Positions 4,158-24,232 of a stretch of 64,000 nt of DNA are shown here, in pieces; the stretch's first letter is position 1, and every line of letters begins with the position of its first letter. Below the pieces are notes generated by a model that was not told where the DNA came from, did no database searches, and was given only the letters and a program-made list of their open reading frames with translations. The stretch covers positions 1 to 64,000 of the IMG/VR virus record IMGVR_UViG_3300035703_000045; one strand, given 5' to 3'. This DNA comes from a virus. The translations under genes and the position numbers were made by a program.

Positions 4158-4173
4158 TAATACAGTATAACAG

Positions 4174-4247
4174 TACCGGGTACGGGAATTGAACCCGTCT
4201 ACGAGTGTATATAAGACACCTTGCGTCAACCAGACGCACCACCCGGT
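4174..4247 (-). tRNA. tRNA-Ile, anticodon UAU (no encoded CCA)
   Basis: Cloverleaf on the minus strand: ACCGGGT acceptor; TGCG/CGCA D-stem; GGTGT-CTTATAT-ACACT anticodon arm; ACGGG-TTCAATT-CCCGT T-arm; ACCCGGT-A. Confidence 0.9.
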
Positions 4248-12462: not shown

Positions 12463-12897
12463 TCAGGATAAAGACATACCCATATACTTGATTTTATTAT
12501 CATTTATGTCTTTTTTATGCATAATGTAAGAAATACTGCCCTTATCTTCAACTTGGTTACGATACTGAAGTACTTCTCCGGGTTTAACGTCACGAGGTCT
12601 TACTGGAACTGTTTCCCACAAAGTGGGTCCACTTTTATCGGCAAGTTCCATAACTATGCGTGAGTCTCGTTCTGAGTCCGGGTCATGATCATCATCAGCC
12701 CAGATTTCAGGACGAAGCATACTTACAGGGATTCGGTAATGATGAATAACATCTCTACCTGACTCCATCATACGGTCAATTGCGGCTTGTTCAGTACCAG
12801 CAAAAACATGAGGATGACCATATCGTACATGGGGAGCATTGTTATCCATTGATGCGTGGTACACATCAATAAACTGTGGTCCGTCAGGTATTGGCAT
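12463..12897 (-). CDS. ADP-ribosyltransferase-like protein, paralog family A
   Basis: VYHAS...VFAGTEQAAIDR...IHHYRIP...YRNQVEDKGSISYI. Confidence 0.55.
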   Translation of the reverse strand: MPIPDGPQFIDVYHASMDNNAPHVRYGHPHVFAGTEQAAIDRMMESGRDVIHHYRIPVSMLRPEIWADDDHDPDSERDSRIVMELADKSGPTLWETVPVRPRDVKPGEVLQYRNQVEDKGSISYIMHKKDINDNKIKYMGMSLS

Positions 12898-12910
12898 GGC
12901 TCAATAATAC
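12895..12910 (-). promoter_or_regulatory. Leaderless promoter GTATTATTGAGCC-ATG, copy 2
   Basis: Identical to 12433-12448; heads the minus-strand array. Confidence 0.55.
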
Positions 12911-13021
12911 CAGAATAGGGCTACATTTGACTTTTGGCAGGTTACCCCCATTGCAGAATAGGGCTATTGCGTAGTTTTGGTGTTATTGGGTGGTTGGCCC
13001 TGCACCATTCGCCGTGAAGCC

Positions 13022-13717
13022 TGTGGATTAACCATGGGGGGTGTGGATATCCCTGTGGATAATGCCGTTATCCACAGCCCTATCTGTGGATAAGTGGTGT
13101 AGTTATCCACATCCCTGTGGGCAATTCTGTGGATAAGTGGCTGTCAAGGGGCAATTGTGTGACATTTGTCATGTGGATAACCCCATTTCCTGTGGATAAC
13201 TATGTGGATAACCCCGAAACCCTGTGTATAACCCATTTCAGCCTGTGGATAAAGATACCCCAAGGGGTACCGTACGCTGGGGAAATGCAAAGTGGGCTTG
13301 TTCATTGACTTTCTGCACGATTTCAGTGCATTTGCCCTGCTCAGAGGCACATTTCGTTGTCCACAGCGATCTGTGGAAATCGCCGTAGAGCCGTTTGGAG
13401 GCTCTGGAGGGGGTGCAGTGCCCCGAAACGCTGGAGGCTGTCAGAGGGCGAAATAGGGGGCAATGAGAGGAAAGTGTCATAACGTGGCATCAGCCCTAGA
13501 AATGGGGCTATGGGTGAGACAAATGTCACAAGTGGGGGGTAGGTGCAGGTATTTGCACTATGCAATCAATCCCCCATCAACTATTTGTACTCTGCAATAG
13601 TTGCACCCTACAAGTATCCCCGTCGCATCCCCCCTATGACCCCCTCTGATATCCCATTCATATATATGTCCAATTTCCGATCCAGTTATCCACAGGGGGC
13701 GCAGAAAGTTATCCACA
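13022..13717. promoter_or_regulatory. DnaA-box cluster (oriC-like or datA-like locus)
   Basis: Perfect TTATCCACA/TGTGGATAA starting at 13054, 13068, 13085, 13103, 13128, 13172, 13191, 13203, 13244, 13686, 13709; TGTGTATAA at 13223; TTGTCCACA at 13357; near-matches at 13022, 13042, 13116, 13372. Confidence 0.88.
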
Positions 13718-14018
13718 GACCCCGAATCGTCCCTACAGTGGCAGTGTGAGGTTCGCAGGGGTCACCATCGTCGGTGGCATCTCAGCATGCGTCCCTACCT
13801 CACGGTGATTCCCACCCTGCAAGGTCGCCACGCTCTCCGATGTCGCAAGTTTGACAGTGCGAGCACGACCGATGCCCCAGCGGTGCGCTGGCACGGATGG
13901 GAAGTCACCCCGTGATTACGAAATGCTCCGAACTGGGGGGATCAGAAGTTGGGCGGTCTAGCACCCGTCACCCCTGAATGCATAGCCAGTCCACCGGAGT
14001 ACGCATGCCAATTCCAAC

Positions 14019-14056
14019 GGTCTCAGGTCTCAGGTCTCACAAGGCGCAAGGTCTCA
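14019..14056 (+). repeat. GGTCTCA heptamer x4 (three tandem, one spaced)
   Basis: Copies at 14019, 14026, 14033 and 14050. Confidence 0.8.
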
Positions 14057-14119
14057 TCGTCCGTCCCCCATGTATGTGGGGGGCGATGGTCGCAGGGGTT
14101 CGCCCCGTAAAGCGACACC

Positions 14120-14175
14120 GTTGGGAGATGCCCCACTAGGGGGCGATTCATGAGGTGCGATCCCTCCTCCCAACA
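14120..14175 (+). ncRNA. tRNA-like mini-element 1 (acceptor stem plus T-arm)
   Basis: GTTGGGAG...GAGG-TGCGATC-CCTC-CTCCCAAC-A with an internal GCCCC/GGGGC hairpin. Confidence 0.4.
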
Positions 14176-14195
14176 CTGCTGACATCCCGTCAGCC

Positions 14196-14212
14196 TGCGT
14201 TCCCGTAACGCA
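14196..14212. repeat. Intergenic palindrome, copy 1 (TGCGTTCCCGTAACGCA, one mismatch)
   Basis: Matches consensus TGCGTTAC-S-GTAACGCA; lies just upstream of the GAAAGGAC RBS. Confidence 0.8.
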
Positions 14213-14231
14213 CCAACCCGAAAGGACAGCA

Positions 14232-14873
14232 ATGAACACCACCGACAACCGAGGGGTTCTCACCCCCATCCACACCGCCTGCGAGATCGCCGAGTCGGCT
14301 CTCGCTGATGCCAACGAGGTGCTCGCCTGCCTGCCAGTGATCATGGATGCCAGCGAGGGTGTCAGCAATCGTGACATCGCCTACTGGGGCGTGAGCGAGG
14401 GCATGGTTCGCCGGTACAAGGTGCTCGCCACCATCATCGCCTTGGGCGACGACGAGGGTGCCCAGTGCGATCTCTTCACGGCTCGCAAGGTCGTGAACGC
14501 CACGTTCAAGGTCAAGGGCATCACCACCGAGATGATGAACGAGGTCATCGCTGAGAGCGACACCGTGTCGCAGGCGGTCGCTGGTCTTCAGGCTCTCGCC
14601 TTGGCTCCGGTCATGACCGAGGTGGACGAGGACGAGACGGACGGCGACGGCGACGGCGACGAGGATCAGACCCCCGACCCCAAGGACGACCTCGCCAAGA
14701 AGGTCACCAACTGGCTCACGGCTGGTCAGGGTTCGCTTCGCAAGGTCGTGGAGGCGCAGGGCAACGGGTTCGTCCTGACCGATGAGCAGGTCGTCGCTCT
14801 CACCACCCTGACCGACCTCGTCGCTCAGATCAACGCCAACGCCAACGCTCAGAAGACGGTCGTCGCCGTCTGA
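14232..14873 (+). CDS. Hypothetical protein, first gene of the plus-strand region
   Basis: GAAAGGAC RBS, strong GC3 bias, acidic DGDGD linker. Confidence 0.8.
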   Translation: MNTTDNRGVLTPIHTACEIAESALADANEVLACLPVIMDASEGVSNRDIAYWGVSEGMVRRYKVLATIIALGDDEGAQCDLFTARKVVNATFKVKGITTEMMNEVIAESDTVSQAVAGLQALALAPVMTEVDEDETDGDGDGDEDQTPDPKDDLAKKVTNWLTAGQGSLRKVVEAQGNGFVLTDEQVVALTTLTDLVAQINANANAQKTVVAV

Positions 14874-14880
14874 TGACACC

Positions 14881-14948
14881 GCCAGTAGCAGTGGGGATGC
14901 CACGGGGCATCAGCAATCCCACGGGGGGTTCAACTCCCCCCACTGGCA
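14881..14948 (+). ncRNA. tRNA-like mini-element 2 (acceptor stem plus T-arm, no D-arm)
   Basis: GCCAGT...GTGGG-GATGCC-ACGG-GGCATC...CCCAC-G-GGGGG-TTCAACT-CCCCC-C-ACTGGC-A. Confidence 0.5.
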
Positions 14949-14998
14949 CTGCTGGACGAGTGCACGGGCAACTGTGCGCTCGTCTAGTATCAACACCG

Positions 14999-15015
14999 TG
15001 CGTTACCGTAACGCA
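14999..15015. repeat. Intergenic palindrome, copy 2
   Basis: TGCGTTACCGTAACGCA upstream of the RBS of the gene at 15035. Confidence 0.85.
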
Positions 15016-15034
15016 CCCGAATGAAAGGACAGCC

Positions 15035-15874
15035 ATGAACCAGCCCAGCGAGAAGCAGATCGGATTCATCCGGTCTCTCGTCAACGAGCGTCGTCAGACG
15101 CTCACCGACCTCAAGCCCGAGTGGCTCACCACTCCGACCACGACCCGTGAGGCGAGCGACATCATCTCCCGACTGATGGATCTGCCCCGTGACCCGAAGG
15201 CTCCGACCGCCGAAGATGCCGACCTCGCCACCGACATGGCAATCCTCAAGAACGGACTGGGCGAATTGTCGGGGCGTGACTTCCACTTCGCCTCGTCGCT
15301 CGTCAAGCAGTACGAAGAGCGTGGCACCCTGTCCGACCGCCAACGGGCGTTCATCCCCAAGTTGTTCAAGGCGATGGACGGTGCTGACAAGCCCGTGCCC
15401 ATGGGCATCCACCGTGCCAGCGACGGCACCATCGTCCTCGTCTACCTGACCAAGAACGGTCGTCAGGCTGGCAAGGTGCTGGACGAGGGCACCTTCATCT
15501 ACGCCAGCGGTGTCATCGCCCGTTTCAACCTGTCCGACGAGACGGTGATCTCGCAGGCGCAGGCTCAGGAGTTCGGGCGCACCCACGGCTTCTGCGTGGC
15601 ATGTGCCAAGCCCCTCACCGACGACCGCTCGCTCGCATCGGGCTACGGCGCAGTGTGCGCTGGCAAGTACGGGTGGCACTACTGCACCCGTGAAGAGGCG
15701 GTGGCGATCTTGGGTCGCCCCGTCGCCTGCCAGCACCAGTGGGAGTTGGTCAAGACGGACACCAACTACTACAACCCCCAATTGGGGACGGGGTCGTGGA
15801 CGGAGCACTACGAGTGCGCCAACTGCGACGAGTGCAAGACGGTCAACATCGTCAACAACCGCTCGGGCGACTGA
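15035..15874 (+). CDS. DUF6011-like zinc-binding protein
   Basis: GFCVACAKPLTDDRSLASGYGAVCA; N-terminal SEKQIGFIRSL; start moved to the ATG after GAAAGGAC. Confidence 0.7.
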   Translation: MNQPSEKQIGFIRSLVNERRQTLTDLKPEWLTTPTTTREASDIISRLMDLPRDPKAPTAEDADLATDMAILKNGLGELSGRDFHFASSLVKQYEERGTLSDRQRAFIPKLFKAMDGADKPVPMGIHRASDGTIVLVYLTKNGRQAGKVLDEGTFIYASGVIARFNLSDETVISQAQAQEFGRTHGFCVACAKPLTDDRSLASGYGAVCAGKYGWHYCTREEAVAILGRPVACQHQWELVKTDTNYYNPQLGTGSWTEHYECANCDECKTVNIVNNRSGD

Positions 15875-15935
15875 TCAGGGGGTGGTATCGGGCAATCTGA
15901 TATCCATCCCATATCCCATCCGACTGCTGGGGGGT

Positions 15936-15952
15936 TGCGTTACCGTAACGCA
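15936..15952. repeat. Intergenic palindrome, copy 3
   Basis: TGCGTTACCGTAACGCA flanked by a G-run and a C-run. Confidence 0.85.
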
Positions 15953-16002
15953 CCCCCTAGCCTGACCCTTCCAACCAACCCAACCACCGAAAGGACACCA
16001 CC

Positions 16003-17568
16003 ATGTCGTTCATTGACGACTTCCTCAACGACCTCCAGCCCACCGCTGGACGACCCTCGCCCCAACCTGTGGGCGTGTCCAGCCTCACCGTCCCGACCCT
16101 GCACCTGCCCCTGATGGACTACCAGCAGGAGTCGGTGCAGTTCGCATTGACCCGTCGCAGTGCCTACCTCGCCCTTGACATGGGCTTGGGCAAGACGGCA
16201 GTCGCCATCGCCATCGCCACTGCTGTTGCCCAGCAGGAGCACCGTCAGGTGCTCATCGTGGTGCCCCCGTCGCTCCGTACCAACTGGGTGCGAGAGTTCG
16301 GGAAGTTCAGCCCCGACCTCAGCATCCACGTCTTTGACAAGTCGGCTCCCACGCCGACCATCAGGGTGCCTCGCATGGTCAACGGCTCCCCGTTGACGGT
16401 GGACGGCAAGAAGGTCATGGACGAGGTTCCCAACCCGAACCCTCCGACCCTCCCGACCAGCAACGTGCTCATCGTGGGCGACTCCACCGTGGAGGGCTGG
16501 GCGCACTGGTTGTCCACCTCTCCCCGTCCGGTCGGTGCGGTCATCGTTGATGAGGCGCATCGGATGAAGAATCCGAAGGCGTTGCGAACCAAGGCTCTCG
16601 CCCAACTCATCAAGTCCATGCCCAGCGACGGCGTGAGGATCATGATGTCGGGCACCCCTGCGCCCAACGGTCGTGCGTCGGAACTCGCCACCGCACTGGA
16701 ACTGGTGGACGGCTGGAGCACGGTCTCCAAGGGCACGTTCTGGCACTACTACTGCCCCCCTGCCAAGTTCGGTCGTGAGCATCTGCCCGAGCGTGTGCAG
16801 GAGTTGGGCGAGAAGTGCCGGAGCACGTTCATGCTCCGTCGCCTCCGTGGTGAGGTGCTGACCCTCCCGAACAAGGGACGCAGTGCCATCGCCGTGGAGG
16901 GCAAGGGCACCGCCGTGCGTAAGTACATCAGCGCAGAGGAAGACCTCATTGAATTCCTCAGCGGTGAGGGTCGCTCCACTGAGGGTGCCGGTCGTGCAGA
17001 AGCACTGGTGCGTCTCACCACTCTCCGTGCCCTCGCTGGTCAGGCGAAGGTGGACGGTGCGGTCACCCTCATCAAGGAGATGCTGGAGGACGACCCCTCG
17101 GGCATCCTCGTCATCGCAGAGCATCAGGCGGTCATGGACGCACTGGAGATGGCGTTCATCGGCAAGGCTGTCAGCATCCGTGGTGGCATGACCGACACGC
17201 AGAAGAGCGATGCCGTGGACATGTTCAACGGTGGTCACGCTCAGGTGCTCATCGGTCAGATCACCAGTGCAGGCGTGGGCTTCACCCTGCACGGTGGTGG
17301 TCGCAACCATCGGGTCGTCGTCGTGCAGTTGCCGTGGACTCCTGCTGAACTCCAGCAGGCAGAGGATCGCCTCCACCGCATCGGGCAGACGCACGATGTG
17401 GAGGTGACCATTGTGCTCACGCACATTGATGGCAAGTGGAGCATTGATGAGCGACTGTGGGGTCTCTTGGAGCAGAAGGCGTTCAGTGCCACCGCCATGA
17501 TCAACGGCGAGGGAGAGTTCCTCACGGACAGCGAAATCCGTGAGGGTCTGCTGGACACCTACCGCTGA
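16003..17568 (+). CDS. SNF2-family (SF2) helicase/translocase
   Basis: DMGLGKT, VVPPSLRTNW, DEAH, SGTP, QAEDRLHRIGQ. Confidence 0.92.
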   Translation: MSFIDDFLNDLQPTAGRPSPQPVGVSSLTVPTLHLPLMDYQQESVQFALTRRSAYLALDMGLGKTAVAIAIATAVAQQEHRQVLIVVPPSLRTNWVREFGKFSPDLSIHVFDKSAPTPTIRVPRMVNGSPLTVDGKKVMDEVPNPNPPTLPTSNVLIVGDSTVEGWAHWLSTSPRPVGAVIVDEAHRMKNPKALRTKALAQLIKSMPSDGVRIMMSGTPAPNGRASELATALELVDGWSTVSKGTFWHYYCPPAKFGREHLPERVQELGEKCRSTFMLRRLRGEVLTLPNKGRSAIAVEGKGTAVRKYISAEEDLIEFLSGEGRSTEGAGRAEALVRLTTLRALAGQAKVDGAVTLIKEMLEDDPSGILVIAEHQAVMDALEMAFIGKAVSIRGGMTDTQKSDAVDMFNGGHAQVLIGQITSAGVGFTLHGGGRNHRVVVVQLPWTPAELQQAEDRLHRIGQTHDVEVTIVLTHIDGKWSIDERLWGLLEQKAFSATAMINGEGEFLTDSEIREGLLDTYR

Positions 17569-17582
17569 CCCCACCCCGACCA

Positions 17583-17615
17583 CGGTGGGGTGCGTTACGG
17601 TAACGCACCCCACCG
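17583..17615. repeat. Intergenic palindrome, copy 4 (33-bp inverted repeat)
   Basis: CGGTGGGG-TGCGTTACGGTAACGCA-CCCCACCG. Confidence 0.9.
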
Positions 17616-17707
17616 ATATCCATATCAAAGGTTGCAATATCAGATTGCGACCCCTAGAATCCCAGTTACAAGTTCAGACCAACCCAACCACAAGAAAGGC
17701 AATCAAC

Positions 17708-18934
17708 ATGGCAACCATCCAAGAACTCGCTCTCGCCAAGCGACAGAACAAGCAGGCTCTCGCCACATCGGGAACGATGGAGGGCATGCGGTGCGACATC
17801 ATGTCGGACTCGCTCGTCCCCGACGGACAGCCCAACCAGCGCAAGGTCGCTGTCAAGTGGGAGGACGGCGAGGAGGGCTTCTACCTGCCCCGTCAGTTGG
17901 AGGTCGTGGAGCCGAAGACCCACGCCTTCATCCCGACCGCACAGCCCGTCCTCGTTGGACAGGCACAGCCCCAGCCCGTGGCGTTGTCCAGTGCCCCTGC
18001 CGTCGTGATGGGTGCGCTTCCCAGCCACCCCGACCACGACTTCTACGACGAGTTCCGTCCGTCGCCCGTCGTCAAGGAGATGCACATCGCCCGTCAGGCG
18101 ATGCTGGGGAGCGACCTCAACTCCACCGAGTACCTCATGGAGTGGTGGAACAAGCGTGACGAGTCGGGCTTCAGCAAGCCCCTCGCCCTCGTCGGTGACA
18201 CGCAGGCTGGCAAGACCATGGAGGTGGAGCGTCTCGCATTCGCCATCGCAGAGCGCATGGGTCTCAGCAAGCCCGTCCCCGTCTTCACGGTGATGGGTTC
18301 CAACGGCGTGACCGATCACGATCTGTTCGGCACCACTCGCACTGACCCCATGACGGGTCAGCCCGTGTTCATGCGTGGCACCGTGCAGATGGCTTGCGAG
18401 GCTCCCGTCGCCATCCTCTACTTGGATGAGGTCAACGCCATGGGTGGCAACGTCACCAGTGCCCTGCACCCCATCATTGACGGACGACACAAGTTCACCA
18501 ACTTGCGTCTCCCCGTCCGTACCGAGGCTGGCTACAGCCCCATGACCATCAACGTCTCCAAGGGTCTGTGGGTCATCGCCTCTTGGAACCCTGCCTACGC
18601 TGGCATGAACAAGACCAACGAGGCGTTCACCGCACGGTTCAAGGTGCTGGAGTGGAACTACGACTCCGCACTGGAAGACCACATCATCGGCTCGCCTGCG
18701 CTCCGCATGCTGGCTGACCAGTTGCGGAACCTGCGCTCCAAGCGCATCCTCAACACGCCGGTCGGTATCACCGACCTCAAGGACATCAAGTGGGAGGCGC
18801 ACAAGTTCGGTGCCAAGGTCGCACTGGATTCCTTCTTGGGCAAGTTCATCAGCGAGGCTGAGAAGATGGCGGTCTCGTCGGCAATGACCGACGGCTCCAT
18901 CTATCAAACCCTCCAGTTGGAGGTGAACTCCTGA
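17708..18934 (+). CDS. MoxR/CbbQ-like AAA+ ATPase
   Basis: Walker A GDTQAGKT, Walker B LYLDEVN, ASWNPAYAG...NEAFTARF; start at the ATG after GAAAGG. Confidence 0.85.
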   Translation: MATIQELALAKRQNKQALATSGTMEGMRCDIMSDSLVPDGQPNQRKVAVKWEDGEEGFYLPRQLEVVEPKTHAFIPTAQPVLVGQAQPQPVALSSAPAVVMGALPSHPDHDFYDEFRPSPVVKEMHIARQAMLGSDLNSTEYLMEWWNKRDESGFSKPLALVGDTQAGKTMEVERLAFAIAERMGLSKPVPVFTVMGSNGVTDHDLFGTTRTDPMTGQPVFMRGTVQMACEAPVAILYLDEVNAMGGNVTSALHPIIDGRHKFTNLRLPVRTEAGYSPMTINVSKGLWVIASWNPAYAGMNKTNEAFTARFKVLEWNYDSALEDHIIGSPALRMLADQLRNLRSKRILNTPVGITDLKDIKWEAHKFGAKVALDSFLGKFISEAEKMAVSSAMTDGSIYQTLQLEVNS

Positions 18935-18939
18935 CAGCC

Positions 18940-18974
18940 TGAGGTGGGTGCGTTACGGTAACGCACCCACCTCA
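18940..18974. repeat. Intergenic palindrome, copy 5 (35-bp inverted repeat)
   Basis: TGAGGTGGG-TGCGTTACGGTAACGCA-CCCACCTCA. Confidence 0.9.
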
Positions 18975-19074
18975 TACCCCACCCATACCGATATCAACTG
19001 CAAGCAGAACCATCCACTTGCATTTGAACTTCATCACACCCACCCCGTACACTCATCAACAGAGAGGACACATC

Positions 19075-21156
19075 ATGACGAAGAAGCAGTTGACCCCCGA
19101 AGAGATGATGGAGCGCAACGTGCGTCGGCAGATGCAGAGGCACGGTGCCAAGATCCGTGAGCGCATCAAGGCTGACACCGAACTGCACGAAGAGCAGAAG
19201 CGTCAAGAGGCGCAGAAACTCATCGCACAGATGGAGGCGAGTGCCAACCGAGGCACGGTGGAGCACAGCGACTACGACAAGGCGCAGTGGCTGTGCGACA
19301 GCATCAAGCAGATCACCACGGTCGTGGCTCGCTCGTTTGGTCAAGACCAGCCCATCGTGCACAAGTACAGCAACATGATTGCTGACCGCATGTTGATGGC
19401 GTTCACTGACCTGAAGGTGGTGACCATCGGCATCAAGCCGTCGCTCGTTCAATTCTCCAGCGACGAAGAAGTGCGGCGCACCACTGCTGTGATCAAGGGT
19501 GCCACCTACCATGAGTTCGCCCACTGCATGTGGACGAAGCATCTCATCAAGGACTACTTCCCGATTGACGATAACGCCCACAAGAACTTCAAGGCGTGGA
19601 ACCTCTTGGAGGACGGACGCATTGAGGCTCTGCTCATCGTGAAGTCTCCGATCATCAAGAAGTACCTTCTTCCGATGATGTGGGACATCGTCGTGAACGT
19701 CGGTGACGAGAGCACTGATGAGTACGACAGGGTGTACCGAATCGCACGGGCAGTACCTTTCTTGCTTGTTCGCACCTACATTCCAAAGGGCATCCAGCGT
19801 CAGGCTGTCATGAACGTGTGGAAGGTACTGGATCTCTCAAACAGAGACACCCCAGCAACTCGTCAGAATGTCAAGAACATCATCAGCGAGATGCTGTCAG
19901 TGAGCCGTGGGTACAACGCCTGCACGGACATGAATGACCAAATCCCGTTCATCGTTCGGTTCAGCGAGTTGCTCAACGAGTGGGGACAACTGTTCGGTCG
20001 GGTCTTCACCAATGACAGTGCTGGTGACCCCAGTGGTCGTACTGGTGAATCATCGTCGGTGGAATCGGTGGAGTCCCCGTCCGAGTGGGACGAGTCCGAG
20101 TGGGACAACAGCACACCTGCACCCAGCACCTCCGATGGTGACAGCAAGCCGGAGAACTCAGCCAAGGGTGAGTCGCACAAGCCATCTGATATGGATATGG
20201 AATCGGACGATGACTCCGACTTCAGCGTCAAGCCCAGCGCAGACGACAAGGACGACAAGCCCAGCGACTCCGACGACAAGGAGAACGATGGCTCCAAGGA
20301 CGATGAGCAATCGCAGGGGAAGTCATCCGACCACGGTGACGAGTCCAACAACAATCCGCACGAAGAGTTGAACAAGGCTGTCAACGAAGCCGTGAGTGAC
20401 TACGAGTTGTCGGCGGTCATGAAGCACTGGGGTGACACCCTCCGCACTGGGTTGCCCTCCTACACGCAACCTCTCCCCACCGATAGCAAAGTGACCGATG
20501 ACGGAGAGATGGTTCGCATCGGCATGATCAATGCACTGGACACGGTGGTCATGACCGCCAGCCCGTCATGGAAGTACCGCATGGAGACTGGTGCCGTGCT
20601 GGATGTGGATGCCTTCACCAACCGTGAGGTGGGTGACGATGCCTACTGGATGGACAAGGACGACAGTGGTGAGCGTGGTCACGACCTCGCCATCAGCATC
20701 CTGCTGGACTGCTCAGGCTCCATGATGGGCACATACTCCGCACTGGGGTCGTGTGCATACGGAATCCATAGCGCATCACAGTCGCTTGGTATCCCGTGCA
20801 CGACGAGCATCTTCGGGACGCACCAGTACATCCTGTGGGGCGAGGACGAGACCCCGACTCCAGTGATCATGCCCGACCTTGGTGGTACTCAGGTTCGGGA
20901 ATGCTTGGAGTCGCTCCCGACTCAACGAGCAGGCAAGTCACGGCAGATCGTGTTCATCCTCACCGATGGTGATTGGGAGTACGACATCCCCACGCTCCTG
21001 CCCTACATGGATGAGGACGTGCACATCGTTCTGATCGGATTGGGGATGCCCTTGGCAAAGTTGACTCAGAAGTCCCCCAGCCGTGCGATCACCATCAAGT
21101 CGGTGATTGATCTGCCGAAGATGGTTGAGCAGGTCATCGGAGACTTCTTCCGGTGA
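19075..21156 (+). CDS. VWA-domain protein with N-terminal HExxH region (CobT-like architecture, MoxR partner)
   Basis: YHEFAH...WNLLEDGRIE; acidic linker; MIDAS motif LLDCSGSM...GGT...ILTDG. Confidence 0.85.
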   Translation: MTKKQLTPEEMMERNVRRQMQRHGAKIRERIKADTELHEEQKRQEAQKLIAQMEASANRGTVEHSDYDKAQWLCDSIKQITTVVARSFGQDQPIVHKYSNMIADRMLMAFTDLKVVTIGIKPSLVQFSSDEEVRRTTAVIKGATYHEFAHCMWTKHLIKDYFPIDDNAHKNFKAWNLLEDGRIEALLIVKSPIIKKYLLPMMWDIVVNVGDESTDEYDRVYRIARAVPFLLVRTYIPKGIQRQAVMNVWKVLDLSNRDTPATRQNVKNIISEMLSVSRGYNACTDMNDQIPFIVRFSELLNEWGQLFGRVFTNDSAGDPSGRTGESSSVESVESPSEWDESEWDNSTPAPSTSDGDSKPENSAKGESHKPSDMDMESDDDSDFSVKPSADDKDDKPSDSDDKENDGSKDDEQSQGKSSDHGDESNNNPHEELNKAVNEAVSDYELSAVMKHWGDTLRTGLPSYTQPLPTDSKVTDDGEMVRIGMINALDTVVMTASPSWKYRMETGAVLDVDAFTNREVGDDAYWMDKDDSGERGHDLAISILLDCSGSMMGTYSALGSCAYGIHSASQSLGIPCTTSIFGTHQYILWGEDETPTPVIMPDLGGTQVRECLESLPTQRAGKSRQIVFILTDGDWEYDIPTLLPYMDEDVHIVLIGLGMPLAKLTQKSPSRAITIKSVIDLPKMVEQVIGDFFR

Positions 21157-21252
21157 CCTGCCACCCATTTGATATCCAACCCATATCCATCCATATGGAC
21201 GGCACCGCATGCAACTGTGGTGCCGTCCAACTGGACGGTCACTGAAACAGTG

Positions 21253-21269
21253 TGCGTTACGGTAACGCA
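21253..21269. repeat. Intergenic palindrome, copy 6
   Basis: TGCGTTACGGTAACGCA, preceded by a GCAA-capped hairpin at about 21196-21229. Confidence 0.85.
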
Positions 21270-21333
21270 CTGAGTTGCAAGACACGACAAGAACAGATAG
21301 TTTGAAATCAAACACAACTAGGAAGGCACAACG

Positions 21334-21642
21334 ATGACGAACACAACGACAGAAGTAACATCCGACATGCTGTGGGACATGAACTTTGCGACCGGCGAAG
21401 ACATCAAGTTCATCTCTTACAGCGGTCGTGCGATGTACGGCAAGACCTGCTTTGGTGTGGTGCTCCCCTGCGCTGAGGATGCCGTGCTGTGGGCACTCAA
21501 CCTGAGCGCAGAAGAGTTCGCTCCGATCCTGAACAACCCTCGGATTGACAGCATGGGTCGCAACATCGTGGTCTACTTCCCGAACCTCATCATCAGCGAC
21601 GAGACGCTCGCTGAGTGGTCGGACGACGAGGACGAGGACTGA
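21334..21642 (+). CDS. Hypothetical phage protein
   Basis: YSGRAMYGKTCFGV...DSMGRNIVVYFP; AGGAAGG RBS. Confidence 0.7.
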   Translation: MTNTTTEVTSDMLWDMNFATGEDIKFISYSGRAMYGKTCFGVVLPCAEDAVLWALNLSAEEFAPILNNPRIDSMGRNIVVYFPNLIISDETLAEWSDDEDED

Positions 21643-21647
21643 CACAC

Positions 21648-21965
21648 ATGTACACATTCTTCTACGACGACAACGACAACCACACAGAAGGGAACACCAC
21701 CGTGAAGTACAACGAGAAGGCACTGGACTACGCCATCGGACACTTCCTGTCCGACTGGGACAAGAACATCCCCAACGACAAGTTGCTGGAGATGATGTAC
21801 TCAGGTGAGTACACAGTCAACGAGGATGGCTTGTCCTCCACGGAGACTGAGGATGCGAACGAGTACATCCTGCCGTGGGAGCCATTTGAGTACATGCCCC
21901 TCAACTGGATCGCAGAGCGCATTGAGATGATGGCGTGGTCTCTCACTGGGGAGGACTTCCGGTGA
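21648..21965 (+). CDS. Hypothetical protein
   Basis: Packed acidic ORF. Confidence 0.6.
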   Translation: MYTFFYDDNDNHTEGNTTVKYNEKALDYAIGHFLSDWDKNIPNDKLLEMMYSGEYTVNEDGLSSTETEDANEYILPWEPFEYMPLNWIAERIEMMAWSLTGEDFR

Positions 21966-22348
21966 GCGAGTACAGGACAACAATGACCCCTGCCATGAAG
22001 GAGTTTCTCATGAACGACTTTCTGAAGACCAAGAAGAAGGATGGGTCGGGACGCTGGCACATTGAGTACATCGTCCATGTGTATGTGGACGCTGACTCCC
22101 GTGAAGAAGCATTGGAGAAGGGTGCATACCACCTCCATATGCTGGAGATGTCAGGCAACCTCTCGGATCACTGCGAACTGCTGGCAGACGAGATTGAGGA
22201 TGACTCCACTCCCGACTGCTGGGAACCCGACGAGGATGGGAACATCATGTGCTTGGACTGCATGAACCCATACCCCTCCAACGAGATCGTCACCGATCCA
22301 CGCTGGAACGACCCACGGTGCGAAGAGTGCCACTACAAGAGCAAGTGA
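21962..22348 (+). CDS. Hypothetical protein with C-terminal CxxC...CxxC
   Basis: GTGA overlap with the upstream stop. Confidence 0.6.
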   Translation: MSEYRTTMTPAMKEFLMNDFLKTKKKDGSGRWHIEYIVHVYVDADSREEALEKGAYHLHMLEMSGNLSDHCELLADEIEDDSTPDCWEPDEDGNIMCLDCMNPYPSNEIVTDPRWNDPRCEECHYKSK

Positions 22349-22358
22349 GGAAACACAA

Positions 22359-22778
22359 ATGATCAACATCATTTCAAAACAAAATCCAGCAGGAACGCCC
22401 CCCAAGTACGACGGGGACGCACTCATTCTCGCCCAATGCGTCCTTGACGCAGGGGCATGGCTCGCATCCTCCGAATTCTCCTATTGGGGCTGTACCTCAT
22501 CGGGCTTCAGCATCACTACAAATCAAGTGAAGTCAGAGGACTCGTTCCTCTATGTTCCTGACGGAACCATGACCCTCCGCTGGTGCGAAACAGACGGAGC
22601 ATTCGCCAATGACCCGATGATGAAGATGTCCTACAAGGAGTCGCTGGCTTTCCAGCGGAACCTTGCCTCCCTGACGGAGGAGATTCTCCGACTCGCCCAA
22701 GAGCGAGGTCTGTCGCTGGAGAACATCAAGGTCGCCCGTGCCCTTGGCAAATACAAGGGAACATACTTTGGTGATTGA
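22359..22778 (+). CDS. Hypothetical protein
   Basis: GAGG RBS. Confidence 0.6.
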   Translation: MINIISKQNPAGTPPKYDGDALILAQCVLDAGAWLASSEFSYWGCTSSGFSITTNQVKSEDSFLYVPDGTMTLRWCETDGAFANDPMMKMSYKESLAFQRNLASLTEEILRLAQERGLSLENIKVARALGKYKGTYFGD

Positions 22779-22795
22779 GAACTAGGAGAAGCAAC

Positions 22796-23074
22796 ATGAT
22801 TCAAAAGTCAATTGATATGCCCAACACGGTCATCACTCATGCACCATTCATGATCTCCCATCACTCTGAAGGAGCATCATGGGAGGACAGCCCCGTGCTC
22901 AAAGCACTGCTGAAGCAGACAGTCATCCTCCTTGACGCAACAGGACTGGAGTTCTGTGGCGATGTCGTGGAGATCGCTCAGGAAGGAATCACCCTCATCC
23001 CGTCGCTCCCCAACAGTGGGTGGACGGTGGCGAACATTCGGTGGGAGAACATCAAGCACATCTACTACTGCTGA
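22796..23074 (+). CDS. Hypothetical protein
   Basis: AGGAG RBS. Confidence 0.55.
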   Translation: MIQKSIDMPNTVITHAPFMISHHSEGASWEDSPVLKALLKQTVILLDATGLEFCGDVVEIAQEGITLIPSLPNSGWTVANIRWENIKHIYYC

Positions 23075-23194
23075 CATCCCACCCATTTGATATCCCGATA
23101 TCAGATAGATAAGAAAGAAATCACAAATCAGGTTGCAAACATCTGTGCAAACTGATTGAATACAAACAGAGAAACCAACAGGAAGGAAACACCC

Positions 23195-23530
23195 ATGAGC
23201 ACAATCACCATCAGCCTCACGGCGAAGAAGCAAATGCCCGAAGACGAGATGTGGGACTTGATCACCGGAAACCCGTGGTTTGAATGGGTTCAGGAAGCCG
23301 AACTCAACGACGGCGTGTTCACTCTCGCAATGGACGATCCTGAGAATCAGGACGCAGTGATCACGCAGTCCTACACCATCACGGATGTCATCAACGGCAT
23401 CGGTCGCATCCCGACCAACACCCCGTGGGGAGAGGAAATCATGAAGGGTTTCTTGGACGAGGACTTGGACATGAACATGCAGGACTGCTTTTGGCAGTTC
23501 ATGCTCTTCAATGAGGTGGTGTACGGCTGA
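23195..23530 (+). CDS. Hypothetical phage protein
   Basis: AAGGA RBS; ends FNEVVYG. Confidence 0.65.
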   Translation: MSTITISLTAKKQMPEDEMWDLITGNPWFEWVQEAELNDGVFTLAMDDPENQDAVITQSYTITDVINGIGRIPTNTPWGEEIMKGFLDEDLDMNMQDCFWQFMLFNEVVYG

Positions 23531-23841
23531 TGGACTTCTCCACCGACCTCACCAATTACAACGACGCAGGAATTGATGCGTGGGTGAAGACGCTTGATGG
23601 ACAGGAATGGGTGTTCGCTCTTGCGACTGTCTCCGATCCCGAAATGCAAGACGAAGAATTCACCATTGCTGTTGGATTCGGGGAGCCTGAGAACATTGAG
23701 GACTTTCCTGAGTTGCTTCATTACGACTCGTCATTGATCTCGTTTTGGTTTCACGACCTTTCCGAAGCACTATCAATGATCGGTAAGAACATCTACGACA
23801 ATTGCACACTGGTCGGATTTCATGGAGCGAACAATGAATGA
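23530..23841 (+). CDS. Hypothetical protein
   Basis: TGATG translational coupling. Confidence 0.6.
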   Translation: MDFSTDLTNYNDAGIDAWVKTLDGQEWVFALATVSDPEMQDEEFTIAVGFGEPENIEDFPELLHYDSSLISFWFHDLSEALSMIGKNIYDNCTLVGFHGANNE

Positions 23842-24232
23842 TCTCGCAGTCATTGGAGTCACCTACGACGGAATGCAATCACTGTGTTTCCGCTGTGTGG
23901 CAACCCACTACCACGAATACCCCGACTCCGACAAGCGTCAACCTCTGACCACGCTTGAGCACCCCACTGGATTCAAATGCGACTCCTGCTATGACATGAT
24001 CAAACCATGTCCGGTGTACCCGACAATGGTGGTCACTAACACTGGGATCATGCGTAACGGAGACATTGAATTCGTGGTGGAACTCACCGATGAGGAAACT
24101 GGGATGACCACCATGTACACCGGATACGGGCTTGACAACATTCTCCCCGAAGAATGGGGAGGTACACCTTTCTACGATCCGTACCTCAACAAGACAGGAA
24201 GCGAGTACGACCATGACGAAGACCCCTTCTGA
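23834..24232 (+). CDS. Hypothetical protein with two CxxC motifs
   Basis: CFRC...CDSC. Confidence 0.55.
   Translation: MNDLAVIGVTYDGMQSLCFRCVATHYHEYPDSDKRQPLTTLEHPTGFKCDSCYDMIKPCPVYPTMVVTNTGIMRNGDIEFVVELTDEETGMTTMYTGYGLDNILPEEWGGTPFYDPYLNKTGSEYDHDEDPF

Follow-up and report, generated by a model that had tools for sequence, protein, structure and literature searches.

The acceptor stem and T-arm of a transfer RNA (tRNA) together constitute a minimal substrate of ribonuclease P (RNase P) (PMC3858429). The same article also names the tRNA-like C4 precursor of the phages P1 and P7 and some polycistronic mRNAs as RNase P substrates, and it cites pre-tmRNA (the transfer-messenger RNA precursor) and the his operon mRNA as other bacterial substrates that are not tRNAs. 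C4 is an antisense regulator of complementary downstream sites. In plant mitochondria, t-elements in mRNA leaders and trailers direct cuts by RNase P and RNase Z (Forner et al. 2007, PMC1920247). In T5-like phages, 1.6 kb of non-coding DNA by the pre-early genes contains DnaA boxes, repeats and palindromes; this region was proposed as an injection stop signal (iss), the role of the boxes being itself a hypothesis (10.1101/866236). Here, positions 13746-14175 of the IMG/VR virus record IMGVR_UViG_3300035703_000045 were compared with these systems. The record comprises 93,044 bp and is classed as linear and as 99% complete; the window, the whole stretch of DNA under analysis, is its first 64 kb. 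An initial annotation had described the 430 nucleotides (nt) as a candidate structured RNA, either a new phage non-coding RNA or a switchable leader.

With moderate confidence, the region is read here as the untranslated 5' leader of a plus-strand early operon, ending in a t-element-like processing signal. Positions 14120-14175 form a well-supported tRNA-like element, the sole such part of the 430 nt. Most of the remainder is probably an ordinary non-coding leader of the early genes. A second element of the same kind precedes the next gene, so that in this uncultured freshwater myovirus an armless tRNA-like minihelix stands ahead of each of the first two early genes, with identical flanks at both.

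Two tRNA-like elements in the early region

Element A was located at 14120..14175 on the plus strand. It consisted of an 8-bp acceptor stem (GTTGGGAG/CTCCCAAC), a 5-bp internal hairpin, a 4-bp T-stem (GAGG/CCTC) whose loop is TGCGATC (7 nt), and a discriminator-like A. Acceptor stem and T-arm formed a coaxial stack of 12 bp, and the fold had a z-score of -2.82. The paralogous element B (14881..14948, plus strand) lay outside the region, 8 nt past the stop codon of gene 1. It comprised a 6-bp acceptor stem (GCCAGT/ACTGGC), a 6-bp T-stem (GGGGGG/CCCCCC) and the canonical T-loop TTCAACT, with an RNALfold z-score of -4.73. The geometry of t-elements, a 12-bp stack with a 7-nt loop closed by G-C and a discriminator, was present in A (8 + 4 bp) as well as B (6 + 6 bp). 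The interiors of the two elements differ and yet keep the fold and the 12-bp stack, which amounts to apparent covariation between paralogs.

The flanks of the elements were conserved. The hexamer GACACC stood directly before the +1 G of element A (14114..14119, plus strand) and was identical at element B (14875-14880). CTGCTG followed element A (14176..14181, plus strand) and the same hexamer followed element B, giving GACACC-G...A-CTGCTG at both. Scanned on the plus strand of the 93 kb, the joint pattern GACACCG-N40-80-ACTGCTG occurred twice. Both elements were then followed by a hairpin, a 17-nt palindrome and the ribosome-binding site (RBS) GAAAGGAC. When the two pre-gene modules were aligned with MAFFT, only the palindrome and the RBS aligned.

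A descriptor of the elements was searched on both strands of the 93 kb. The loop had to read T[TG]CRANY, 7 nt with a closing G-C pair, and the T-stem (4-7 bp) had to run straight into the 3' strand of the acceptor stem. T-stem and acceptor stem together had to total 12 bp, with at most one G-U pair in the acceptor stem. Exactly three loci were found: a tRNA-Ile (4174-4247, minus strand), 14120-14175 and 14881-14948. The recovery of the one true tRNA served as a control. In 30 dinucleotide-shuffled genomes, the descriptor gave a mean of 0.1 hits and 29 genomes had none, a significance that is overstated because the descriptor was written after the elements had been seen.

Searches with established tRNA models gave little. 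ARAGORN at default settings found the tRNA-Ile at 4173-4247 as the sole tRNA and no cloverleaf in the elements. At the 80% threshold it returned 87 hits in 93 kb, about one per kb, which is noise. The T-arm motif GGTTCRANYCC was matched by GGTTCAACTCC of element B, whereas GGTGCGATCCC of element A failed with one mismatch at the U55 position. Below threshold, element B gave weak matches to the Rfam families mascRNA (20.1 bits, E 0.67), Tymo_tRNA-like (18.3 bits) and tRNA-Sec (17.5 bits); the mascRNA gathering score of 42.5 was far above the score of element B. A search for antisense targets of A and B yielded only scattered 9- to 11-mers genome-wide, at the rate of chance. The tRNA-Ile(TAT) of the phage (4173-4247, minus strand) does not encode CCA, and its discriminator A is followed by CTG. 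This CTG trailer start is common to the tRNA-Ile and both mini-elements.

Coding potential and RNA family searches

The region 13746-14175 is non-coding, because none of its open reading frames (ORFs) shared the marked codon bias of the genes around it. GC content at codon positions 1, 2 and 3 was flat with about 0.6/0.6/0.6; the adjacent genes have 0.65/0.41/0.86. A codon log-odds score derived from the early genes was negative for all ORFs of the region and ranged from +0.55 to +0.79 for the genes. Ten ORF translations of at least 36 amino acids (aa) were looked up in a collection of 15 billion proteins, and none was among the called proteins. A pseudogene remnant was rejected, as the codon periodicity is gone.

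It is extremely improbable that any small protein is encoded here. On the plus strand, ORFs 13787-13915, 13949-14110 and 13978-14139 would be candidates, as would the 10-codon ORF at 14150. Several ORFs of 36-53 aa do exist, and the ATG at 14150 has AGGGGG 6 nt ahead of it. However, no RBS of the GAAAGGAC type precedes any candidate ORF, codon log-odds were negative for every one of them, and GC did not rise at third positions, which reach a GC content (GC3) of 0.80-0.86 in the neighbouring genes. The lookup, which was negative for 10 of 10 ORFs of at least 36 aa and did not include the 10-codon ORF at 14150, also speaks against it.

No Rfam family matched the 64-kb window at gathering scores. 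With the cutoff relaxed to E <= 10, the only overlap with the region was an antisense TPP match of 15.5 bits (threshold 54.3), which is chance level. The Rfam scan proposed in the initial annotation thus bore out its statement that the region belongs to no named family. A BLAST search of the leader against its own genome revealed no paralogs except the palindrome. The leader is balanced in G (0.30) and C (0.31), and an R-loop or primer RNA was rejected on this ground.

Folding of the 430-nt region

The complementary segments listed in the initial annotation are all present at their positions, and minimum free energy (MFE) folding recovered each of its four helix domains as a closed unit. The domains are held by a GC-rich (61%) non-coding leader segment at 13746..14113 (plus strand). 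As a whole, the region folded no better than shuffled sequences, the very outcome that the annotation had named as speaking against a multi-domain structured RNA of about 430 nt, and this proposal found no support. On the plus strand the MFE was -174.8, compared with a shuffle mean of -167.6 (z -1.25), and 11 of 100 dinucleotide shuffles were equal; the antisense strand had a z-score of -1.20, so there was no excess of folding energy on either strand. The individual domains, cut at the helix-closing boundaries of the annotation, a choice that favours them, had z-scores of -2.15, -2.31, 0.01 and -3.67 on the plus strand and of -3.01, -3.56, -1.41 and -3.38 on the minus strand. With three of four domains more stable on the minus strand, G-U pairs did not mark the plus strand as had been suggested.

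For the background, RNALfold z-scores were computed along the entire 93-kb genome on both strands. Local structures with z <= -2 covered 68% of plus-strand positions, and those with z <= -3 covered 29%. The best local structure inside 13746-14175 reached z -2.82. Among 430-nt windows, the mean per-position score of the region was at the 73rd percentile on the plus strand, i.e., less structured than typical, and at the 46th percentile on the minus strand. In the early block, hairpins between genes, and not the leader, were the strongest structures on the plus strand. The segment 13746-14113 has no fold beyond that of any sequence of like composition.

It is quite unlikely that the whole of 13746-14175 acts as one functional multi-domain RNA, be it a new non-coding RNA or a leader responsive to a ligand or factor, with 14120-14126 as its switch. 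The recovery of closed domains by MFE folding and the high GC content of a region that is nevertheless non-coding speak for such an RNA. The z-scores of -1.25 and -1.20 on the two strands argue against it, as do the 73rd percentile, a best local z-score of -2.82 in a genome of which 29% reaches -3, the absence of strand asymmetry and the lack of any Rfam aptamer. On present evidence, the 430-nt stretch makes no case for a new RNA family.

Another reading is that 13746-14113 is an inert spacer carried in with the GC-rich early module and that only 14114-14231 is functional. This is unlikely. It agrees with folding at background level and with the absence of a coding signal, a known family or an internal paralog. 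The GC content equals that of the adjacent foreign block (63%, vs about 45% on the left), and the module before gene 2 works without such an upstream stretch. Phages, on the other hand, seldom retain about 370 nt of inert DNA, and sequence variation, described below, adds to both sides.

Alternative pairing of the element A acceptor stem

The initial annotation had further noted that GTTGGGA at 14120 can pair either upstream or downstream, making two folds mutually exclusive. The alternative pairing exists and is near-isoenergetic, but its interpretation as a switch found no support. The upstream helix joins 14012-14021 to 14117-14126 (10 bp) and the downstream helix, the acceptor stem of element A, joins 14120-14127 to 14167-14174 (8 bp); 14012..14021 (plus strand) thereby competes with the acceptor stem. 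Constrained folding gave energies of -66.9 kcal/mol with the upstream and -68.7 kcal/mol with the downstream pairing, and the ensemble probabilities were 0.42 and 0.58, respectively. This near-equality speaks for the multi-domain RNA considered above. Against it, 13746-14231 contained two helices of at least 8 bp, compared with a shuffle mean of 2.6, and a pair of such helices sharing a strand arose in 7% of dinucleotide shuffles.

An expression platform was lacking as well. No terminator-like site was found in 12700-14400, and the leader has no T-run of at least 4 nt that could serve as the U-tract of a terminator. The leader also contains no complement of at least 6 bp to the Shine-Dalgarno (SD) sequence and start codon (14216-14236). 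Ahead of gene 2, the paralogous module lacks any upstream helix that could compete.

A truly bistable leader is highly improbable. In that case the 14012-14021/14117-14126 helix would hide the cleavage flank and the 5' strand of the acceptor stem of element A and would gate cleavage by RNase P and RNase Z. Release of a mini-tRNA, to which CCA could be added, and the first cut of the mRNA would then depend on leader folding or a bound factor. The early operon of the phage would be tRNA-punctuated, and the first of its cuts would be regulated.

Sequence variation and relatives

Near-identical DNA was listed in 20 DNA runs, which belong to 13 metagenome studies of freshwater, lake and subsurface sites. 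Four sequencing runs gave short contigs, none of which covered 14106-14239, and two of the four had no contigs over 13637-14373. Leader contigs of two other metagenomes showed 98-99% identity. In run X14, four sites and one 2-nt insertion differed within the 278 nt of 13805-14082, and 36 of 450 sites differed in 14292-14793, mostly at third codon positions. Parts of gene 1 differed by up to 13.5% in contigs.

The five leader changes (13851, 13883, 13911, after 13917 and 13985) all fell on predicted unpaired positions. None lies in a stem, and there is no compensatory event among them. A permutation test gave p = 0.004 with the plus-strand ensemble and p = 0.006 with the minus-strand ensemble, so the strands were not discriminated; the test comprises five events from low-depth contigs that perhaps represent different strains. 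The placement of the variants gives a hint of constraint on the leader. It favours the multi-domain RNA (p about 0.004), as does the lower divergence of the leader compared with the adjacent gene in run X14, but the test rests on five low-depth events and came out equally well on the minus strand. For the inert spacer, variants that avoid predicted helices are an argument against, together with the 98-99% identity in contigs of two other studies, compared with differences of up to 13.5% in parts of gene 1.

Homologs of gene 1 with 97-40% identity were found in metagenomes, some on contigs of 85-92 kb. The N-terminal extensions of P0005/P0021 and P0020 are the translated upstream DNA of relatives with 50-60% identity, i.e., gene-caller artefacts. 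In these extensions, the stretches GSTP(P) and GFNS(P) could, in two different frames, be encoded by GGTTCRANYCC placed 78 and 68 nt before the ATG; this phage has its T-arm at -78. These positions suggest that the tRNA-like T-arm may be conserved across the lineage. The P0020 extension had weak collinear similarity to 14004-14141 only (best tblastn E 0.28, not significant). That the upstream translations of relatives of about 60% identity are collinear at 14004-14141 alone, and weakly so, counts in favour of the inert spacer.

Other searches for relatives were negative. Six gene 1 homologs in the representative protein library had no N-terminal extension, gene 2 homologs had none either, and a search for longer gene 1 proteins found nothing. 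Peptide patterns of three neighbouring proteins, scanned in viral contigs, and a 7-sequence alignment pattern, scanned in viral, metagenome and genome contigs, revealed no relative. The acidic GACGGC/GACGAG repeat within gene 1 (14619-14676) draws many unrelated metagenome contigs and shows 6-nt indels between strains at 14640/14641.

DnaA boxes, promoter-like motif and palindrome

A dense array of DnaA boxes occupies 13022-13717, with 11 exact and five one-mismatch copies of TTATCCACA in both orientations. All 11 exact copies of the 64-kb window lie inside 13054-13717, and the 93-kb genome has a single further exact copy at 85274. The last two perfect boxes (13686-13694 and 13709-13717, plus strand) are exact copies of TTATCCACA. 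The array is judged to be under selection because strain variants of other metagenomes, 13227 T>G and 13359 G>A, make two near-boxes perfect; the remaining strain variants of the array fall outside the exact boxes. No DnaA box was found within 13746-14175, the final box ending at 13717. The T5-type feature of consensus DnaA boxes is thus absent from the region and present in the adjacent 13022-13717. Within the intergenic gap, local folds were strongest left of 13746-14175 (13502-13624, z -4.7; 13011-13142, z -4.8), in the part with the DnaA boxes and an imperfect inverted repeat of 32 nt (13158-13189/13499-13530).

A role at the DNA level is unlikely. The region would then be the right part of a 1.3-kb DnaA-box control region serving as an origin, in DnaA regulation or titration, or as a T5-like injection stop, and its inverted repeats would be protein-binding or cruciform features. 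It adjoins 11 perfect and five near DnaA boxes at the sole divergent strand switch, the strain variants that perfect two near-boxes indicate selection on the array, and the helices are as good or better on the minus strand, as expected of DNA palindromes. T5-like phages have a comparable box-rich non-coding region (10.1101/866236). However, the boxes stop at 13717, outside the region, and with 61% GC it is unlike an unwinding element. Its composition fits the GC-rich gene block on the right and not the box array on the left, its sole repeated motif is the GGTCTCA heptamer, and its 3' end has RNA features found on the plus strand only, namely T-loop, discriminator and flanks.

In 13300-14240, k-mer enrichment was limited to this heptamer and the DnaA boxes. 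Three tandem GGTCTCA copies stand at 14019-14039, and a fourth at 14050, 10 nt on. The genome has four copies of AGGTCTCA, three of them within 14019-14056.

The motif TGATATCC-N4-CATAT at 13647..13663 (plus strand) is a candidate early promoter or regulator site. It has three exact copies in 93 kb (13647-13663, 15898-15914 and 21170-21186), each of them plus-strand and in an intergenic part of the early block; the copy at 13647 is 100 nt upstream of the region. Partial copies occur near 17614 and 18989.

The 17-nt palindrome has its first copy, here TGCGTTCCCGTAACGCA, at 14196..14212 (plus strand). Its general form TGCGTTAC(C/G)GTAACGCA has six genome copies (14196, 14999, 15936, 17591, 18949 and 21253), all between or before early plus-strand genes and nowhere else. 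In copies 3-6, the flanking sequences vary yet stay complementary, lengthening the hairpin. A scan for the exact pattern found no viral contigs and 20 metagenome loci, none of them related in the early region. An N4-type hairpin promoter was rejected for the palindrome, as there is no ORF for a giant virion RNA polymerase; the largest ORF has 921 aa.

Proposed processing of the early transcript

The initial annotation's term leader is plausible: the region is non-coding, has an RNA-type 3' end on the plus strand and lies between the promoter-like motif or DnaA boxes and the first plus-strand gene. The qualifier switchable was dropped. The proposed layout would run from the TGATATCC promoter or regulator motif through two DnaA boxes, a leader of about 400 nt and the tRNA-like unit to hairpins, SD sequence and gene 1. 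The leader would be transcribed from the plus strand, from a start site presumed to lie near the motif end of this layout. The minihelix may be recognised by host RNase P, with a cut on the 5' side of G14120, and by RNase Z or a comparable 3' tRNA-processing endonuclease, with a cut on the 3' side of A14175. These cuts would free the leader. The gene 1 mRNA would then start with CUGCUG, followed by hairpin, palindrome and SD sequence. Its would-be 5' end contains a small hairpin, CTGAC-loop-GTCAG (14178..14192, plus strand), and the fold of 14176-14231 had a z-score of -2.68. Downstream, the SD sequence GAAAGGAC and the start codon ATG of gene 1, the first early gene (213 aa), occupy 14220..14234 (plus strand). 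Element B would separate cistrons 1 and 2 in like manner.

Apart from the descriptor having been written after the fact, several points weigh against the reading as a processed leader. Element A has a G for the near-invariant U55 in its loop and matches neither Rfam nor ARAGORN at default settings. No sigma-70-type promoter was found in 12700-14400. The sequence was listed in 20 DNA runs and in no RNA run. Concerning the relatives, back-translation shows compatibility with the T-arm motif and not the actual nucleotides, and 3.5% and 10% of composition-preserving shuffles of the extension peptides contained a compatible site at any position. Mixed strains or recombination in the metagenomes could instead explain why the leader diverges so little. 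Should each gene's transcript begin from the palindrome at 14196, acting as promoter or operator, the upstream DNA would not be a leader of gene 1.

The processed leader predicts RNA ends at 14119/14120 and 14175/14176. If RNase P and RNase Z cut there, phage mRNAs would be punctuated in the style of tRNAs. Such punctuation is known from organelles and from MALAT1/mascRNA; to our knowledge, it is not established for phage early transcripts.

Phage genome and setting of the region

The phage encodes a tail sheath, baseplate J, an SPP1-type portal and a terminase, and its replication genes include a family A DNA polymerase, a DnaB-like helicase and two SNF2 helicases. From this gene set, it is a myovirus-type phage. 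No match for the phage DNA was found by blastn against phage records, and gene 1 had no match in tblastn against phages. Matches of the SNF2 helicase in phages were all at or below 30% identity. Altogether, these blastn and tblastn searches of phage records found no cultured or deposited phage resembling this one.

Most genes are on the minus strand and the plus-strand block begins at ATG 14232. The region 13746-14175 sits in a gap of 1,335 nt between the start of the last minus-strand gene (12897) and ATG 14232, and this gap is the sole divergent strand switch. Left of 13000 the GC content is about 45%, and it climbs to 63% at 14000-19000. The early plus-strand block (14000-24000) is compositionally foreign, with a GC3 of 0.80-0.86 and an overall GC content of 61-64%, which drops gradually to about 48% by 24 kb; the remaining genome has 42-50%.

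The RBS GAAAGGAC also stands ahead of genes 2 and 3. The long ORF 14873-15874 is not the true gene 2, whose homologs have 279 aa. The true start is the ATG at 15035, preceded by a palindrome copy and RBS. The length of the homologs and the palindrome and RBS before ATG 15035 therefore make 14874-15034 intergenic.

Comparison with known systems

The locus resembles the T5 iss in being a large non-coding region with repeats, palindromes and consensus DnaA boxes beside early genes. Unlike the T5 case, the phage is a myovirus unrelated to T5, and the DnaA boxes lie left of 13746-14175 and not inside it.

The early region of phage T7 has a long leader before its first early gene and long RNase III hairpins between cistrons. 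A leader of several hundred nt and candidate structured processing signals between early cistrons are found here as well. The candidate signals, however, are tRNA-like minihelices and a conserved 17-nt palindrome and not RNase III hairpins.

The mascRNA of MALAT1 is a tRNA-like unit excised from its transcript by tRNA-processing enzymes. The module (RF01684) shares with the present elements the position of a tRNA-like unit within a longer transcript, and element B is a weak match of 20.1 bits. In contrast to mascRNA, element A gave no match, the score of element B is far under 42.5, and the family is eukaryotic.

Like the C4 precursor of P1 and P7, the leader would present a tRNA-like fold in a phage operon leader, where host RNase P could cut. 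It is unlike C4 in that A and B show no downstream complementarity above chance and no 3' RCCA.

Plant mitochondrial t-elements differ from the elements described here in their organellar setting, the present elements belonging to a bacterial phage and having no recognisable D or anticodon arm. In addition, element A has a deviant T-loop (TGCGATC), and cleavage here is proposed from sequence. The likeness is in the non-canonical unit of acceptor stem and T-arm that stands in a 5' leader or between genes and whose ends would define mRNA ends, and in GGTTCRANYCC of element B, the T-arm motif that has been used for finding t-elements.

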